The position numbers and the translations under genes are program-made. From the NCBI GenBank assembly GCA_002773795.1, contig PFAD01000008.1, forward strand, positions 280,696 through 344,695: DNA of 64,000 nucleotides, read 5' to 3'. Of the stretch, positions 2,677 through 50,587 are shown piece after piece. Positions within the stretch are counted from its first letter, which is position 1, and each line of letters begins with the position of its first letter. The notes below the pieces were generated by a model. The model was not told the origin of the DNA, made no database searches, and saw nothing but the letters and a program-made list of their open reading frames with translations. This DNA is from Chlamydiae bacterium CG10_big_fil_rev_8_21_14_0_10_42_34 (GTDB lineage Bacteria; Chlamydiota; Chlamydiia; Chlamydiales; SM23-39).

Positions 2677-3426
2677 ATGCCTATCTTCAATAAGATCACA
2701 GTGTGTATCCTTACTAAAAATGCAGAAAGCACAATTGAAGAAACGCTTGATTCGACGCATCTTTTTTCAGAAGTTTTGATTTTGGACAATGGCTCAACGG
2801 ATGCAACTCTTGCGATCGCATCGAAATATCCAAACGTAGTGATCCATAAAGCGCCCTTTATAGGGTTTGGCCCCTTGAGAAACCGTTTAGCAGAGCTTGC
2901 AACCAATGACTGGATACTTGCCCTAGATAGCGATGAAATTGTCTCCCCTCCCCTATCCCAGGAACTAGATCAGCTTACCCTTGATCCTCACTTCACCTAT
3001 AACTTCCCTCGCCATAACTTTTACGATGGAAAACAGGTCCGTGGCTGCGGTTGGGACAAAGAGTATGTGGCTAGGCTCTACAACCGTAATGCAACCCGGT
3101 TTTCAGACGCTTTGGTCCACGAATCGCTTATCACCCTCAAGCCTTTGACCCTTCAATACCCTCTTCTTCATACGCCATACAGATCAACGACCGAATTTTT
3201 AGCAAAGATGCAACACTATTCAACCCTTTTTGCAGAGCAACATCGTGGCAAAAAGAGCTCCTCATTTTCAAAAGCGCTCCTGCATGGGATCTATGCTTTT
3301 ATCAGGAGTTATTTTTTCAAAAAGGGAATTTTCTGTGGAAAAAGGGGCTTTATTATTTCTCTATACAATGCCAATACAACTTTCTATAAATATCTGAAGC
3401 TTTATGAAGTCAATAGAAACGGCTGA
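2677..3426 (+). CDS. family-2 glycosyltransferase (LPS-core type)
   Basis: N-terminal GT-A signature ITVCILTKNAESTIEETL..LDNGSTDAT..LALDSDE (DxD-like). 249 aa. Confidence 0.7.
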   Translation: MPIFNKITVCILTKNAESTIEETLDSTHLFSEVLILDNGSTDATLAIASKYPNVVIHKAPFIGFGPLRNRLAELATNDWILALDSDEIVSPPLSQELDQLTLDPHFTYNFPRHNFYDGKQVRGCGWDKEYVARLYNRNATRFSDALVHESLITLKPLTLQYPLLHTPYRSTTEFLAKMQHYSTLFAEQHRGKKSSSFSKALLHGIYAFIRSYFFKKGIFCGKRGFIISLYNANTTFYKYLKLYEVNRNG

Positions 3427-4712
3427 AGAGAAGAAAACCTTTCTAGAAGATCTTCAGCACTTGGTCGTTTAGTCGGATCAAGCTCAAGCATTGAGCGAAT
3501 GAGTGGTTCAAATTCAGGTCTTGAAGCTAGAAGTGCATCATCCAAATGAGGCTCTTTTAAATTCGCTATCGAAGCCCAAACTTCTTCGTGTGATTTTTTA
3601 TAGGATGCCCATGGAGGAGTCGTTCCGTAAAATAGCTGGTGAAACGTAACGCCCAATGCCCATATATCTGCTTTGATTCTGGTTTCATCCGCATCCAAGC
3701 CGACGAGCTGCTCTGAGCTTAGCAATAGATAATCAGGAGATAGATAATGGGAAGTTCCAACATGTTTCGCCATTAAGTAGTTCTTAGCCCTATGAGGATT
3801 ATAGCTTCCAAAATCGATGAAGTTTGCATCCCCATTTTGATCAATCAGTAGATTCTGCGGCTTTATATCTCCATGAGATCCATTTTTATGGATTCTTGTT
3901 AGCCCAACAAGGAGATCGATGGCAATCTGATTTTTTTTTCTATCACACTCTACTTTATTCTCCTTAATGCAATCCCATAGACTTAAACCTATGGGTTGAA
4001 AAATGGCTAAAGATGGACGACCCGTTTTTTTCCTATAAAATGTCTCATCTAGAACTGGTTGAATCGCTTTTCCTTTTAAACGCTTCATGACATCCACTTC
4101 CATTTTTGTTATGACATAGTCACCGAACTTGTCAGTAATGCGTGCAACCCAAACTTGTTTATTTAAGTCCCAAACTTTTTTTACCTTTTTGTTTCCACCT
4201 TGGCCAATTTTCCCTTTCGGAACACTGATATACACGTTTGCATTTTTCATAATGTGCAACCCTTTAGGGAACGGCGACTCATTTTTATGAATGCGAATAT
4301 CTTTGTCAGAATTTAAGTGGGCCAAAAGGAAACGTGCGCATTTGTGGCTATCAAAGTTTAAATCAGGTCTATTTGTTTTAAGTACCTTGAGTTTAGAAGC
4401 TAATTTTTCCATAGCTTCATGTGGTTGGGTATTTATAGGCTTGTATTGACTTAATTCACTTTGAATTTTTTTGAGAAGAACAAAACGCTTGAAACATTTA
4501 AAAATAGATCTAATGCAAGCAGAAATTCCCCAGGTGGGAAAGTCATACACCTTTATCTCCCAAAGATTTTTTAATTTAAAATGAGAAAGGGCCCGATTAG
4601 CAATTTCCCGAATTGGTGTGTCATTTGACTGAGAATTAAGTTGCACTGCAACCCATTGGCTCATTCCAGGAAACAAATAATCACAAACAACGCTCATATA
4701 ATATCCATTCAT
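3402..4712 (-). CDS. eukaryotic-like (Hanks-type) Ser/Thr protein kinase, paralogue 1
   Basis: Glycine loop GQGGNKKV, catalytic loop HGDIKPQNLL, IDFGS, GTSHYLSPDY. There is a ~165-aa N-terminal extension without a TM segment. The start codon is uncertain. Confidence 0.8.
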   Translation of the reverse strand: MNGYYMSVVCDYLFPGMSQWVAVQLNSQSNDTPIREIANRALSHFKLKNLWEIKVYDFPTWGISACIRSIFKCFKRFVLLKKIQSELSQYKPINTQPHEAMEKLASKLKVLKTNRPDLNFDSHKCARFLLAHLNSDKDIRIHKNESPFPKGLHIMKNANVYISVPKGKIGQGGNKKVKKVWDLNKQVWVARITDKFGDYVITKMEVDVMKRLKGKAIQPVLDETFYRKKTGRPSLAIFQPIGLSLWDCIKENKVECDRKKNQIAIDLLVGLTRIHKNGSHGDIKPQNLLIDQNGDANFIDFGSYNPHRAKNYLMAKHVGTSHYLSPDYLLLSSEQLVGLDADETRIKADIWALGVTFHQLFYGTTPPWASYKKSHEEVWASIANLKEPHLDDALLASRPEFEPLIRSMLELDPTKRPSAEDLLERFSSLQPFLLTS

Positions 4713-6754: not shown

Positions 6755-6805
6755 GCAGTTGGCTTACTCTCCCGCCATTTTGGGAAAATGACGGTAGCCG
6801 GATTC
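6755..6805. repeat. 51-nt direct repeat, proximal copy overlapping the 3' end of the tRNA at 6789-6862
   Basis: Identical to 6640-6690. The two copies diverge exactly inside the T-loop (gaacc versus cggga). Confidence 0.9.
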
Positions 6806-6862
6806 GAACCAGCGACACGTGGATTATGATTCCACTGCTCTAACCAACTGAGCTATACCGCC
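6789..6862 (-). tRNA. tRNA with CAT anticodon, elongator type (Met, or Ile2 if C34 is lysidinylated)
   Basis: GGCGGTATAGCTCAGTTGGTTAGAGCAGTGGAATCATAATCCACGTGTCGCTGGTTCGAATCCGGCTACCGTCA, folded by hand. The acceptor stem is 7 bp with a G1-C72 pair, D stem GCTC/GAGC, anticodon stem GTGGA/TCCAC, T stem GCTGG/CCGGC. No CCA is encoded. Confidence 0.85.
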
Positions 6863-6922
6863 ACAAGACTTAATTTGAAATTTACACTTCTTGAGGCGAT
6901 GCCTCATCAACTAAAATAATAT

Positions 6923-6995
6923 TAGCGGGGGTAGGACTCGAACCTACGGCCTTTGGGTTATGAGCCCAACGAGCTAACCACTGCTCCACCCCGCG
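6923..6995 (-). tRNA. initiator tRNA-fMet (CAT)
   Basis: CGCGGGGTGGAGCAGTGGTTAGCTCGTTGGGCTCATAACCCAAAGGCCGTAGGTTCGAGTCCTACCCCCGCTA. It has a C1/U72 mismatch and three consecutive G-C pairs closing the anticodon loop (GGG/CCC). The 5' half is close to E. coli tRNA-fMet. Confidence 0.9.
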
Positions 6996-7111
6996 ATAAA
7001 GAAAGTTAAAGCTTAGCATGATAGCCCATTTATTCCCAAAGTTTTTTTCAAACCTTTCGCATTTAGCTCCAAACTGCTATAATTCCATTAAGAAAACGTA
7101 AAGGAAATACC

Positions 7112-46140: not shown

Positions 46141-48039
46141 ATGCGCCGATCGATCTGTTTTTGTGAGCCAAACGCTGCTTTAGCCGGGGACACATCTACC
46201 TGGAAATTCGTATATACCACTGCAAGCCATCTCCCAAAAGGAGCAAAACTACGCTTTGACCTAGAGAGCAAAGGGCGCCCCATTGACTGGCAAGTTCCAG
46301 CGACCAGCACTAAAGAAAAAAGTAATGTAATTTGGGGCGAATTGCCGAACGGTAAAACAGTGAGCGCGTCTCAAGTACAGCACCCCCAGAATATGACCGT
46401 CTCTTTTGAGTTTACCCTCCCATCTGAGCTCAAGCCAGGGGATAACTTTGTCATCGTTATGAAAGATAACGCCTCGCAAAAAGGGGTTCAAAGAAGACGC
46501 CCTTTCCAACTACATATCGATGCAAAAGGTAAGGGAGACTACAAAGAAAGCGAAACATTTTATCTCGATGTTCGCGGGAACCACCTTAAAAACCTTCGAA
46601 TCATCGCTCCCTCATTGGTAGGAAGAAACAAAAGATTTGATGTTATCGTCCGTTTTGAAGATGTTTTTGGCAACCTGACATCTAACGCTCCTGAGGGGAC
46701 TTTAATCGATTTAAGCTATCAACACCTCAGAGAGAATCTTAGTTGGAAGCTATTTGTCCCTGAAACAGGCTTTATCGCCCTTCCCAACCTATATTTTAAT
46801 GAACCGGGCATTTATCGAATCCAGCTCAAAAACTTAAAGTCTAAAGAGCAGTTTTTCTCTCCCCCCATCAAGTGTCTTCCAGAAGGCGCATTGAGCCTAT
46901 ATTGGGGAACTTTGCATGGTGAATCAGAACGAATTGACTCTGCTGAGCATATCGAGACTTTTTTACGCCACATGAGAGATGATAAAGCTCTCCAATTTTT
47001 CGCCACCTCATCCTTCGACACCGAAGAAGAGACCTCGAACGACGTCTGGAAAGGGATCATTCAACAAGTGGCAGAATTCAACGAAGAAGACAGATTCGTT
47101 GCCATGGCTGGATTTCAATGGCAAGGAGAAGCAAAAGAAGAGGGCGTGCGCCAGTTTATCTACTCCAAAGATAGCAAGCCGATCATGCGTCGTAAAGACA
47201 CAAAAAACAACTCCCTAAAAAAGATCTATAAGACAAACAATCCCAAAGAGCTCATTGCAATCCCGACCTTTACAATGGGGAAAACAACATCGTATAACTT
47301 TGACGACTTCAACCCTGAGTTTGAGCGCGTTGTCGAAATTTATAACGCATGGGGCTCTTCAGAATGCACAGCAAAAGAAGGAAACCTCCGCCCAATTCAA
47401 GGAGGCAAAAATGGAATTGCAGAATCTGCTGAAGGTTCAATCCAAAAAGCCTTGAATAATGGCTGCAGGTTTGGTTTTGTCGCGGGTGGTTTTGATGATC
47501 GAGGTCCTTATAGCGGACTTTTCGACTCGAATCAATCGCAATACACAGCAGGACTTACTGCGATCCTTTCAAAAGAGCACAATAGGTCCTCACTTTTTGA
47601 AGCGCTTCAAAATCGTTCTTGCTATGCAACAACTGGCGAAAGGATGATCCTCGGACTTCACATTGCAGGCCGTTCGATGGGCTCGGAATTGGAAACTAAA
47701 GAAAAACCAGGCCTAGAATTCAATCGACATATCACTGGCTACTGCATTGGGACAAGACCTCTTACAGAAGCTACTCTCATCAGAAATGGAAAAGTGTTCC
47801 GCACGCTTGAAATTAAAGATGACATGGTCGAATTTGAGATCGACGATATGGACCAGCTCGGACAAATTGCCTTAGAGCAAAAAGATGAGCGCCCTGCATT
47901 CGTCTACTACTATCTACGCGTTATTCAAGACGATGGGCATATCGCATGGAGCTCACCGATATGGATCGATCTCACATCGCGCACAGCACCTATTGCAACA
48001 GGCAAAAAGAATAAGAAGAAAATCAAAGAAAGCGATTAA
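46141..48039 (+). CDS. hypothetical protein, C-terminal ~370 aa DUF3604/PHP-like
   Basis: WGTLHGESERIDSA, GLTAILSKEHNRSSLFEALQNRSCYATTGERM and the terminal IAWSSPIWIDL resemble DUF3604 blocks as I remember them. GAGGAG RBS. Confidence 0.35.
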   Translation: MRRSICFCEPNAALAGDTSTWKFVYTTASHLPKGAKLRFDLESKGRPIDWQVPATSTKEKSNVIWGELPNGKTVSASQVQHPQNMTVSFEFTLPSELKPGDNFVIVMKDNASQKGVQRRRPFQLHIDAKGKGDYKESETFYLDVRGNHLKNLRIIAPSLVGRNKRFDVIVRFEDVFGNLTSNAPEGTLIDLSYQHLRENLSWKLFVPETGFIALPNLYFNEPGIYRIQLKNLKSKEQFFSPPIKCLPEGALSLYWGTLHGESERIDSAEHIETFLRHMRDDKALQFFATSSFDTEEETSNDVWKGIIQQVAEFNEEDRFVAMAGFQWQGEAKEEGVRQFIYSKDSKPIMRRKDTKNNSLKKIYKTNNPKELIAIPTFTMGKTTSYNFDDFNPEFERVVEIYNAWGSSECTAKEGNLRPIQGGKNGIAESAEGSIQKALNNGCRFGFVAGGFDDRGPYSGLFDSNQSQYTAGLTAILSKEHNRSSLFEALQNRSCYATTGERMILGLHIAGRSMGSELETKEKPGLEFNRHITGYCIGTRPLTEATLIRNGKVFRTLEIKDDMVEFEIDDMDQLGQIALEQKDERPAFVYYYLRVIQDDGHIAWSSPIWIDLTSRTAPIATGKKNKKKIKESD

Positions 48040-48053
48040 AAAGTAGATGATAG

Positions 48054-48073
48054 CCGCAGGAGCATTCCTGCGG
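48054..48073 (+). terminator. hairpin downstream of the 46141-48039 gene
   Basis: ccgcagga-gcat-tcctgcgg forms a perfect 8-bp stem. The T run is displaced about 20 nt downstream. Confidence 0.4.
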
Positions 48074-48080
48074 CGATCGA

Positions 48081-48197
48081 TTATAATTCGATTTTTTTAA
48101 ACATGTCATCTGTTAAAGAATTGCTTCTTGGACTCACCGATCTTCTTGCTTCTTGAATCAAGTTATCTGCCGCAGTTTTTGGATCGTGAGCTGCGTG
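48081..48197 (-). pseudogene. C-terminal fragment (38 codons plus stop) of a small ORF split by the IS element
   Basis: Manual translation gives HAAHDPKTAADNLIQEARRSVSPRSNSLTDDMFKKIEL*. It joins in frame with 49874-49990. Confidence 0.5.
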
Positions 48198-48258
48198 CCA
48201 TTTTTTATCCCTGACGCCGTAAAACCCAGTCCTTCAGGGCGGGGATATAAGCCGCCTC

Positions 48259-48678
48259 TTAAATTTCTGGGGATGCCTGTTGTTCAATGTACTGTTTGAT
48301 CACGTTCAAAGGCGCTCCTCCGCAAGCACCGGCAAAATAGCTCGGAGACCACAAACTTTTCCCCCACAAAGCTTTTTGAATGCTGGGATAGTTTTGTTTC
48401 CGCAGCAGCCGTGAAGATACCCCTTTGAGGCTGTTGACCAGTTTGGAAATACTGACCTTGGGCGGATACTCGACTAGTAAATGGACATGATCCATTTCTC
48501 CATCAAATTCCACTAGATTGGCTTCAAAATCGGAGCACACATCTTTGAGAATCGCTTTAAGATGTTCCAAGATCGCTTTTGTGAATACAGGACGACGATA
48601 TCTTGTTACAAAGACCAAATGCACGTGCATGAGAAAAACACATGTTCTTCCTCTTCTTAAATCAGTTGACAAATTCAT
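48259..48678 (-). CDS. tnpA: IS200/IS605 family Y1 (HUH) transposase
   Basis: 139 aa from MNLSTDL. HUH motif HVHLLV, catalytic Tyr region SPSYFAGACGGAPLNVIKQYIEQQ. The longer track ORF (to 48855) is an upstream extension overlapping tnpB. Confidence 0.9.
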   Translation of the reverse strand: MNLSTDLRRGRTCVFLMHVHLVFVTRYRRPVFTKAILEHLKAILKDVCSDFEANLVEFDGEMDHVHLLVEYPPKVSISKLVNSLKGVSSRLLRKQNYPSIQKALWGKSLWSPSYFAGACGGAPLNVIKQYIEQQASPEI

Positions 48679-48701
48679 AGACCAAACAATAGCATGGCTG
48701 C

Positions 48702-49823
48702 ATGTTTGTTCGAAAGGCATTTCAATTCCGACTCCATCCGACAAAAGCGCAAGCCAAGTTGTTACAGGCGCAATTAGATGAATGTCGATGGCTATACAAT
48801 GAACTGCTCTCGCAGAGGAAGATGGCTTACGAGGAATTAGACATGTCTCTCTCAAAGTATCAGCAACTTATGTTTTTGCCGATCCTCAAGGAAGAACGGA
48901 CCTCCTTAAAGACAGTACATTCTCAAGTATTGCAAAACATTGTCGATCGCTTGGATAAGTCATTTCAAGCGTTTTTTCGTAGATGCAAAACAGAAGAAAA
49001 GCCCGGGTTCCCCAGATTTCGTGGAATGCACCGTTACGACAGTTTTTGCTATCCACAGAGTGGATTTCTTGTGCTTGGCAAAGAAATCACTTTCTCTAAA
49101 GTCGGTCGGATTCGGATGAAGATGCATCGTCCCATTGAGGGAGAGGTCAAAACTTGCACGATTAAAAAGACACCCTCGGGGGCGTGGGACGTTACTCTTT
49201 CCTGCGAAGTCAAAATCACTCAATTAGAACCTTTGGCAGAAGCAATTGCAATAGATGTGGGACTTGAATCCTTTGCCACCTTGTCGAGTGGAGACAAGAT
49301 TGCAAACCCTCGATTTTTCAAAAAGGGAGAGAAGGCTCTTGCAAAAGCGCAGAGAAAGCTAAGTAAACTGCAAAAAGGCACTAAAGAGCGTCGCAAGACA
49401 GGGAAGGCTGTGGCTAAAATCCATGAACGGATTAAAAATCAGAGGAGGGATTTTTGTCACAAGCAATCTAGAAAAATTGTCGATCAATATCAATATATCT
49501 GCATAGAAGATCTGAACGTCAAAAAGATGATAGAAGGATCTCATTTTGCAAAAAGCATAGCGGATGCGAGCTGGAATCAGTTTCGTCAATTCCTCACCTA
49601 CAAAGCGGCAGAAGCTGGTAGGAAGTTGGGACTGGTGAACCCTGCATATACAAGCCAAATCTGCTCACAATGTGGACATTTGGAGCCGAAGAAATTAGCC
49701 GAAAGAGAGCACAAATGTTCCCAATGTGGGTATACGGCGCATAGGGATATCAACGCAGCACAAAATATTTTGGCCCTTGGATTGGATGGCCTGGGAGAAA
49801 TCCCTAGAAGCCTTCGCCTTTAG
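48702..49823 (+). CDS. tnpB: TnpB (IS605 OrfB-type RuvC-like, RNA-guided endonuclease family)
   Basis: 373 aa. RuvC triad candidates are AIDVGL (D), ICIEDLNV (E) and HRDINAAQNI (D). Zinc finger CSQCGH..CSQCGY. Confidence 0.9.
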   Translation: MFVRKAFQFRLHPTKAQAKLLQAQLDECRWLYNELLSQRKMAYEELDMSLSKYQQLMFLPILKEERTSLKTVHSQVLQNIVDRLDKSFQAFFRRCKTEEKPGFPRFRGMHRYDSFCYPQSGFLVLGKEITFSKVGRIRMKMHRPIEGEVKTCTIKKTPSGAWDVTLSCEVKITQLEPLAEAIAIDVGLESFATLSSGDKIANPRFFKKGEKALAKAQRKLSKLQKGTKERRKTGKAVAKIHERIKNQRRDFCHKQSRKIVDQYQYICIEDLNVKKMIEGSHFAKSIADASWNQFRQFLTYKAAEAGRKLGLVNPAYTSQICSQCGHLEPKKLAEREHKCSQCGYTAHRDINAAQNILALGLDGLGEIPRSLRL

Positions 49824-49873
49824 GCGAGGGAGCAGTCACGATACGAACATCCTTGAGGAAGTGTAGGTTCACT

Positions 49874-49990
49874 CCACTTGGTCTTGTAAAAAATTACCTC
49901 TGCCGCTTCAACGACTTTTTGGGTTAGAGGTTTTTTAGAAAGTATATGTTGGATCTGAAAAAATGGGTCCATACCATCATCAACAGACAT
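49874..49990 (-). pseudogene. N-terminal fragment (39 codons) of the small ORF split by the IS element
   Basis: AGGAGAGG RBS, then MSVDDGMDPFFQIQHILSKKPLTQKVVEAAEVIFYKTKW. The reading frame then runs into IS sequence and stops at 49820. Confidence 0.5.
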
Positions 49991-50035
49991 ACCTCTCCTT
50001 TCTATAGGAATTGCCATAATTATTTCCTTTTATAT

Positions 50036-50587
50036 TTAATTGCGATTTGCCTCTTGAGAGACTTTATTAATTAAGTGTGCTAAAACCAAACGAGGATCTT
50101 TCTGAACCATAGCGTTGCCTATCTCTTCAGAAGATTGAAAAACTAGATCACGCAAGCACCAAGGTGCCGCACGTCCAATTTCAGCATAGACTTCCTTCCT
50201 TTCAGCTTCTGAAAAATATTGCGCGAAATAGTTAATAATCTCATCGCTATTTTGCATCTGAGGAAGACGCCCTAAAAGCTCTTGATGCGGATTTGGCTGA
50301 TCGATCTCTTGGGGAAGTGGTTCTGCTGGACCTCTTAAAACAGCAGGCTCGCGATATGGCGGTTGATTTGGCAGAGATAAACCTTTAAAAAAAGTATAAA
50401 TCTTATCAAAAAGTAATAGAGCTAGATCCCTTAAAGCAAGAACTCCAAGCTCCACAAAACCTTTTTGCTTTTGAGGTGCAGGACTGATTGAGTCTCGTGG
50501 CCGCGCTCGCGGAAGAGCCCGACCTACATCAACAGGTGGGATAAAAGGGGGCGCTGCATGATCTACATTGCTTATTGGATCAATCAT
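50036..50587 (-). CDS. hypothetical Pro-rich protein
   Basis: 183 aa. Pro-rich N-terminal half (APPFIPPVD, NQPPYREPA, PEPLPQEIDQPNP) and one hydrophobic stretch. Confidence 0.45.
   Translation of the reverse strand: MIDPISNVDHAAPPFIPPVDVGRALPRARPRDSISPAPQKQKGFVELGVLALRDLALLLFDKIYTFFKGLSLPNQPPYREPAVLRGPAEPLPQEIDQPNPHQELLGRLPQMQNSDEIINYFAQYFSEAERKEVYAEIGRAAPWCLRDLVFQSSEEIGNAMVQKDPRLVLAHLINKVSQEANRN

Follow-up and report, generated by a model that had tools for sequence, protein, structure and literature searches.

A probable IS605-type insertion sequence with divergent tnpA and tnpB in an environmental chlamydia: ends, target and predicted guide taken from its relatives

Results

An insertion sequence with two intact genes

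The window analysed here is a 64,000-nucleotide stretch of Chlamydiae bacterium CG10_big_fil_rev_8_21_14_0_10_42_34 (GenBank assembly GCA_002773795.1, contig PFAD01000008.1, positions 280,696 to 344,695). At window positions 48209-49839 it very probably carries a single 1631-bp insertion sequence of the IS200/IS605 family, of the IS605 type with divergent tnpA and tnpB genes, lying directly 3' of a TTTAT target. The element is an unnamed member of this well-known family, and its proteins have already been deposited under generic names ('transposase' and 'RNA-guided endonuclease InsQ/TnpB family protein'). Its G+C content (0.40-0.45) equals that of the surroundings and gives no sign of foreign origin, and no terminal inverted repeat was found at its ends. 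All the defining features of IS200/IS605 that a sequence can reveal appear to be present in it.

The transposase gene tnpA (48259-48678, minus strand) is intact and encodes a Y1 HUH transposase of 139 residues, as identified by Pfam, NCBIfam and structure alignments. The protein covered the whole of the Pfam profile Y1_Tnp (7e-44) and matched the NCBIfam model transpos_IS200 ('IS200/IS605 family transposase') at 2.4e-43, with 147 bits against a cut-off of 55. Among solved structures its best match was the TnpA of IS608 (2A6M; E 3.7e-23). The HUH motif, H64-V-H66 within DHVHLLV, aligned with the HUH of IS608, and Tyr130, within KQYIEQQ, with Y127, the catalytic tyrosine of that enzyme.

On the plus strand, tnpB (48702-49823) is intact and without frameshift. 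It encodes a putative RNA-guided nuclease of 373 residues with the domains HTH_OrfB_IS605, OrfB_IS605 and the Cas12f1-like_TNB zinc ribbon. The protein matched the NCBIfam model guided_TnpB at 1e-102 (344 bits; cut-off 100) and the TnpB of ISDra2 (8H1J/8EXA) at E 5e-60 over residues 3-360. Its RuvC residue D185 aligned with D191 of ISDra2, which has been tested experimentally and whose mutation abolishes cleavage (PMC8612924). The remaining RuvC residues, E269 and D349, and the zinc-finger cysteines C321, C324, C339 and C342 aligned with identical ISDra2 residues. Judged by these alignments, TnpB looks like a typical ISDra2-like enzyme. The top structure in the PDB search was 9YYG, an 'AI-designed RNA-guided nuclease' (E 3e-72), ahead of the natural ISDra2 TnpB.

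An earlier reading of this DNA (the original prediction) had described an intact IS605-type element with divergent tnpA and tnpB and a complete TnpB, and had pointed to the HUH motif (HVHLLV), the catalytic tyrosine, the RuvC D/E/D residues and both CxxC pairs. The domain profiles and structure alignments bear it out on each of these points, and the frameshifts that it feared might have been missed by eye are absent from tnpB.

Relatives of the element were collected in a one-genome-per-species search, which returned 21 loci with TnpB proteins 67-91% identical to that of the window. Nearly all lie in Chlamydiota metagenome bins (Parachlamydia, Parachlamydiales, Simkania and Ca. Acheromyda of the Rhabdochlamydiaceae). 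Two matches bear the labels Verrucomicrobia and Thermodesulfobacteriota, perhaps as a result of binning errors or of transfer.

The start codons of tnpA and tnpB (48678 and 48702) are 23 nt apart, as originally proposed. An alternative tnpA start at Met17 (48630; 123 residues), called on three contigs, was considered and rejected. Alignments to the family profiles begin at TnpA residue 8, and a relative from a Simkania sp. bin (L019) has CTG at the position of Met17; the start at 48678 is therefore preferred.

A sigma-70-like promoter precedes tnpB (48666-48695, plus strand). It consists of TTGACA (48666-48671), an 18-nt spacer and TAGCAT (48690-48695), matches the consensus at 10 of 12 positions, and is kept in nearly all relatives. 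A gap of 6 nt separates the -10 box from the tnpB ATG, with the same spacing in the relatives, and no Shine-Dalgarno sequence is present before tnpB; on both grounds the tnpB mRNA is probably leaderless. Each promoter had been expected to lie inside the other gene. This holds for tnpB, whose conserved -35 box falls inside tnpA codons 3-5; for tnpA, no convincing promoter candidate was found.

Right and left ends from related copies

All of the more than 70 related copies, which come mostly from Chlamydiota metagenome bins, lost similarity right after ...GGGAGCAGTCAC. At all 18 genome loci that reach that far, nucleotide similarity stopped after GGGAGCAGTCAC, the bases that follow being unrelated in every pair, and five closer copies (L026-L030; 89-96% nucleotide identity) ended at the same base. 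The Logan contigs of the window's own locus (L002) and of two of these copies (L028 and L030) terminate exactly at the last C of TCAC, and that of L029 terminates one base later. Such stops are a repeat-boundary signature of assembly-graph branching, independent of the alignments. When metagenomes were scanned for the terminal 38 nt of the element, 53 contigs carried this exact sequence, followed by ~45 different right flanks, and the bases after TCAC showed no preference. Given the stop of similarity in all copies and the contig ends at that C, we place the right end at 49839.

Alignments with relatives begin on the left at ~48203. Of 31 distinct copies, 28 have the pentanucleotide TTTAT (48204-48208, plus strand) directly before the left end, and the others have ATTAT, TGTAT and TTTAA; bases further upstream vary. 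Elements of the IS200/IS605 family have their insertion target in the conserved bases that border the left end on the outside (PMC3201880, PMC8612924). Since the conserved flank is the target in this family, TTTAT lies outside the element, which starts at 48209. The pentanucleotide includes the left cleavage site, TTAT, and is predicted to be the transposon-associated motif (TAM). By comparison with the relatives, the window copy would have inserted at TTTAT/G (slash, junction). Across the family, right flanks were unrelated among copies and did not repeat the left flank, that is, there was no target-site duplication.

These ends imply an uninterrupted allele with the corrected junction ...CCATTTTTTAT/GATACGAAC..., a donor joint ...GCCATTTTTTAT/GATACGAACATCC... 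(TTTAT/GATACG) and a circle junction ...GCAGTCAC/CCCTGACGCC... (TCAC/CCCTGA).

Palindromes and guide bases at the ends

The left end (LE; 48209-48258, plus strand) is made up of a linker, an outer stem arm, the left guide (GL) AAAA (48221-48224), the imperfect palindrome CCCAGTCC-TTCA-GGGCGGGG (48225-48244) and a 3' arm. The LE profile matches all relatives, in which the two-tier fold is kept, and the outer stem covaries across the family (CGCGA/TCGCG, GGCG/CGCC, CGCC/GGCG and CGAGC/GCTCG). In this copy the LE is degenerate. Left ends of the same subtype (L027, L028, L038 and L056) read GACGGCG...GG[G/T]CTGGG...GCCGCC, and that of the window reads GACGCCG...GGGCGGGG...GCCGCC. Of the two substitutions private to the window, the one in the 48222 region (GGCG to GCCG) breaks the outer stem and the one at 48241 (CTGGG to CGGGG) breaks the palindrome. 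Together they create a GC stem between GGCGG (in GGGCGGGG) and CCGCC (in GCCGCC) at 48225-48256, shortly beyond the stop codon of tnpA. Such a stem could have arisen by chance, or it could be a new hairpin at the 3' end of the gene.

The right end (RE; 49807-49839, plus strand) starts with the right guide (GR) GAAG (49807-49810) and continues with the imperfect palindrome CCTTCGCC-TTTA-GGCGAGGG (49811-49830), in which 4 pairs are compensated across the family. The linker AGCAG follows, and TCAC (49836-49839) forms the last bases of the element. The window RE is identical to the family consensus.

In IS608 the left and right cleavage sites, CL TTAC and CR TCAA, pair with GL AAAG and GR GAAT, the four bases 5' of each palindrome foot; CL is separated from the left foot by 19 nt on the 5' side, and CR from the right foot by 10 nt on the 3' side (PMC3201880, PMC5934647). 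The window has AAAA with TTAT 16 nt upstream of the left foot, and GAAG with TCAC, cleavage falling 9 nt beyond the right foot. The last guide/cleavage position is canonical in all four cases (C:G and A:T in IS608, T:A and C:G here). One relative (L075, ~160-260) has the target TTAA with the guide AAAT, and an outer stem CGAGC/GCTCG. This is a compensatory change at -1, as the IS608 rule predicts, and it argues for a cut after TTTAT and not after the C that follows. A boundary after TTTATC was rejected: the last base of the guide, A, pairs with T and not C, L075 covaries at that position, and the first element base of L038 is T, not C.

On one relative contig (L071, ~11330-11430) an LE lies 11 kb from the RE, as an orphan or as part of a second element. 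TGTAT precedes this LE and its guide position reads CAAA, possibly by a G:C change at a different guide/target position, or through decay.

A candidate omega-RNA at the 3' end of tnpB

The predicted omega-RNA scaffold spans 49700-49839 (plus strand; 5' limit uncertain) and contains hairpins at 49772-49791, 49793-49804 and 49811-49830. The last of these spans the tnpB stop codon (49821-49823), as had been noticed before. The last 220 nt of 19 copies were aligned and analysed with RNAalifold and pair counts. In the three local hairpins 99.1% of cells were paired and 8 of 18 pairs showed compensatory double changes; none of 500 column shuffles was as good, and slid-partner controls were 35-62% paired. 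The covariation check suggested with the original prediction thus favours structure at the right end. Long-range pairs proposed by RNAalifold (columns 16-26 with 107-112 and 217-220) lacked covariation, were broken in some copies, and were discarded.

Synonymous change was suppressed towards the 3' end of the gene. Among 15 full tnpB copies, identity at third codon positions was ~0.45 over the first two thirds of tnpB, 0.62-0.67 from 49422 and 0.91 over the final 40 codons; at first and second positions it stayed at ~0.8-0.9 throughout. The three hairpins and the suppressed synonymous change would fit an omega-RNA as well as a right-end signal. An IS608-type TnpA needs one palindrome together with guide and cleavage bases (PMC3201880). 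It does not need the two upstream hairpins (49772-49804), and an RNA scaffold is therefore the likelier reason for them. No internal promoter-like site was found before the scaffold. In some systems TnpB itself processes its mRNA to give the omega-RNA, and such self-processing would fit a scaffold without an internal promoter.

The guide of ISDra2 is the flank directly 3' of the right end, and its TAM is the transposon target (PMC8612924). By analogy, the omega-RNA guide predicted here is the host flank GATACGAACATCCTTG (49840-49855, plus strand), that is, the first bases after the family-defined RE, with a length of ~16 nt taken from ISDra2 (PMC8612924); it would also be the target in the donor joint, and it is unique in the window. 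The TAM is predicted to be TTTAT. That flanks diverge exactly after TCAC in all copies and that the TTTAT target is kept are necessary for this assignment of guide and TAM, not sufficient. In its general logic, with an omega-RNA from the tnpB 3' end and RE, a guide from the right flank and a TAM to the left of the LE, the original prediction agrees with the ISDra2 paradigm.

From what is known of the family, we propose that TnpA would recognise the subterminal imperfect hairpins on the top (plus) strand as single-stranded DNA. It would cut behind TTAT at the left end and behind TCAC at the right, each site being set by base pairing with the tetranucleotide immediately 5' of the hairpin (AAAA and GAAG, respectively). 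Transposition would proceed through a single-stranded circle that integrates at other TTTAT sites and duplicates no target sequence. The omega-RNA bound by TnpB would derive from the 3' part of tnpB together with the RE, with the first ~16 nt of the right flank as guide. TnpB would then cut the donor joint of TTTAT and flank left by excision, and recombination would restore the element.

Relatives appear to be mobile, and many lack tnpA

Within single metagenomes, near-identical ends occurred with many different flanks, an indirect sign of single-strand excision and integration. Several bins hold 2-3 copies, and 13 of 14 relatives keep an intact tnpB open reading frame (ORF) of 372-373 codons. 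More than 120 protein clusters have at least 73% identity. On these comparisons, the family appears clearly mobile and under selection, which is purifying.

Loss of tnpA was frequent. In relatives without the gene (L008, L009, L015-L018, L033 and L075) the TTGACA promoter follows immediately on the LE, and LE and RE are ~1.21-1.26 kb apart. Others (L013, L014, L021, L038 and L062) have internal tnpA deletions and measure 1.34-1.50 kb, as compared with 1.63-1.64 kb for full copies. In nearly all, tnpB is intact. The L019 relative (3001-4137) is a decaying copy: its tnpB is 1 nt short, frameshifted and has 19 in-frame stops, although both ends and the region of tnpA can still be made out.

A survey of complete genomes placed Chlamydiae among the TnpB-poor phyla (PMC10691335). 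The abundance of the present family in environmental Chlamydiota modestly qualifies that statement. We consider it improbable, while worth stating, that the window copy belongs to a large TnpB lineage, mobile at present and spread across environmental Chlamydiota, with a compact 373-residue nuclease, a T-rich TAM (TTTAT), a leaderless tnpB and many intact derivatives without tnpA, and that this copy, its LE damaged but its TnpB and RE intact, is kept by TnpB and not by transposition. If true, the locus would offer a natural view of a TnpB that has outlived its transposase.

Alternative explanations

Several observations weigh against the interpretation of the locus as an element with working ends and an RNA-guided TnpB. 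The single-stranded DNA fold of the window LE was non-canonical, at -6.3 kcal/mol (z -0.11). Neither homologue searches of the flanking ORFs nor a metagenome flank scan found an empty site or excision junction, and no second copy or fragment of the element lies within the window. The scan, made with 27 nt of the right flank, gave 0 matches to empty or alternative contexts, the collection evidently being without contigs of this organism. Rfam searches, one of the whole window at the gathering threshold and one of 48100-50000 at E<=1, returned two tRNAs only, and the single-sequence RNA fold of 49700-49855 was no more stable than shuffles (z -0.44). Finally, the 3' hairpins overlap coding sequence and one doubles as a TnpA DNA signal, so that covariation alone is no proof of an RNA.

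Activity evidence for the window copy is neutral to negative, and the element may be an immobilised relic. In that case tnpA and tnpB would be intact with excision blocked by the broken LE, and a fixed single-copy insertion would carry a TnpB and omega-RNA that are idle or still expressed. We regard this as quite possible, without expecting it. The two private substitutions each break a stem that covaries in relatives, and the window LE has lost the canonical two-tier fold seen in L027 and L038 (-10.7 and -10.3 kcal/mol; z -2.9 and -3.0). With the left-end structure broken, excision of the window copy may be impaired, to which we give slightly less than even weight. A total of 7 contigs, from ENA, Logan, JGI and NCBI assemblies, encode the exact TnpB, and among them the four distinct places shown are one and the same site. 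Within the window, the element is also single-copy. However, both ORFs are intact and the RE is identical to the family consensus. The family palindromes are naturally imperfect, and the predicted effect of a mismatch depends on the tolerance of TnpA. Moreover, the 50-nt LE has only 3 substitutions, of which two in stems is not statistically striking, being suggestive and no proof. The original prediction had called the insertion recent and possibly active; the single site for the exact TnpB, the broken LE stems and a host ORF without homologues give this no positive support.

A different explanation concerns the 3' end. The hairpins and low synonymous variation could reflect single-stranded DNA signals for TnpA and constraint on the protein only, with no functional omega-RNA and a TnpB that is inactive or has some other role. 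The third hairpin is indeed the RE palindrome that TnpA needs, and this view would agree with the want of an Rfam match and the insignificant single-sequence fold. We nevertheless think it very unlikely: the two further hairpins, beyond the requirement of an IS608-type TnpA, are also compensated, constraint at third positions reaches ~400 nt upstream, and TnpB has the full RuvC triad and zinc finger and strong similarity to the biochemically proven TnpB of ISDra2 (PMC8612924). There is next to no chance, in our view, that the anatomy first proposed is correct. It had the element at 48198-49876, a guide cttggtcttgtaaaaa..., a TAM ending in gcgtgcca, and a host ORF split at K-W, with the junction ...GCGTGCCA/CTTGGTC.... 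In its favour, joining 48200 to 49877 keeps the minus-strand frame open over 86 residues. However, a third of all junctions preserve the frame, the corrected one among them (101 residues), and the split ORF has no homologue; the proposed junction had joined two coincidental K-W codon pairs. Positions 49840-49876 have no counterpart in the more than 70 related copies, whose boundaries differ from those proposed, and TTTAT, counted inside the element, is the conserved flank motif. The right end had thus been drawn 37 nt too far and the guide (cttggtc...) begun 37 nt too late, the predicted guide starting at 49840 (GATACGAAC...), and gcgtgcca is upstream of the conserved TTTAT. This correction of ends, guide and TAM to an element at 48209-49839 is the main result of the analysis; an experiment on the guide, TAM or 3' RNA end first proposed would have failed.

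Comparison with characterized elements

The element resembles ISDra2 of Deinococcus radiodurans in its TnpB, with matched catalytic and cysteine residues over the alignment described above, and in its TnpA of ~140 residues (E 2e-20). In ISDra2 a pentanucleotide target doubles as TAM and the guide comes from the flank 3' of the RE (PMC8612924), and the same is predicted here. The target is TTGAT in ISDra2 and TTTAT here, and TnpB has 408 residues there and 373 here, where the omega-RNA and nuclease activity are predicted from sequence. The two genes are co-directional and overlapping in ISDra2, whereas they are divergent here; IS605 also has divergent tnpA and tnpB.

With IS608/IS605 of Helicobacter pylori the element shares the best solved-structure match of TnpA, with HUH and tyrosine aligned, and the architecture of the ends, in which the cleavage distances are close to those of IS608 (16 against 19 nt and 9 against 10 nt) and AAAA/TTAT and GAAG/TCAC parallel AAAG/TTAC and GAAT/TCAA (PMC3201880, PMC5934647). 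The target and cleavage sequences and the host phylum differ, and the palindrome sequences are unrelated. IS1341-type tnpB-only derivatives of the same chlamydial family share LE, promoter, tnpB and RE at 70-85% identity. They lack tnpA or have it internally deleted, whereas the window copy has the full gene.

The IS200/IS605 family and TnpB with its omega-RNA are well characterized, and this copy fits them feature by feature; it adds little for biology at large. The family-defined ends do give a testable TnpB system, with the TAM TTTAT, a 373-residue protein and a scaffold ending at TCAC.

Genomic surroundings

The ORFs flanking the element matched only Chlamydiae bacterium CG10_big_fil_rev_8_21_14_0_10_42_34 itself, an uncultured environmental chlamydia. 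An annotated minus-strand ORF (49820-50017; COT85_02790, a 65-residue hypothetical protein) takes its last 6-7 codons and stop (49820-49839) from the RE. Its remainder (49840-50017) may be the 5' part of a small ORF around the element, with a Shine-Dalgarno-like AAGGA 9 nt before the ATG. A possible 3' part of the same ORF (48081-48208, minus strand) is in frame across the corrected junction, giving a putative product of 101 residues. Frame is kept by one junction in three, and the chance of an open 41-codon continuation is roughly 0.1. Among 5.8 billion proteins, the reconstructed 101-residue protein had no homologue except its own 65-residue fragment, and the adjacent 183-residue protein (50036-50587, minus strand; COT85_02795) matched only itself. 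Because both flanking ORFs are without homologues, no orthologous empty site was obtained, and the clean interruption of a host ORF claimed in the original prediction is unsupported; at the corrected junction, the evidence speaks neither for nor against an interruption. The element lies in a patch of sequence that is specific to its lineage.

A GC-rich hairpin, GCCGCAGGA-GCAT-TCCTGCGGC (48053-48074), lies between a convergent DUF3604 gene, which ends at 48039, and the small minus-strand ORF, which ends at 48081. With T-runs flanking it on both sides, it looks like a bidirectional terminator. Together with the AAGGA before the ATG, this hairpin would speak in favour of a real small gene. Elsewhere in the window, two tRNA-Met (CAT) genes stand in tandem on the minus strand, ~60 nt apart (6788-6996).

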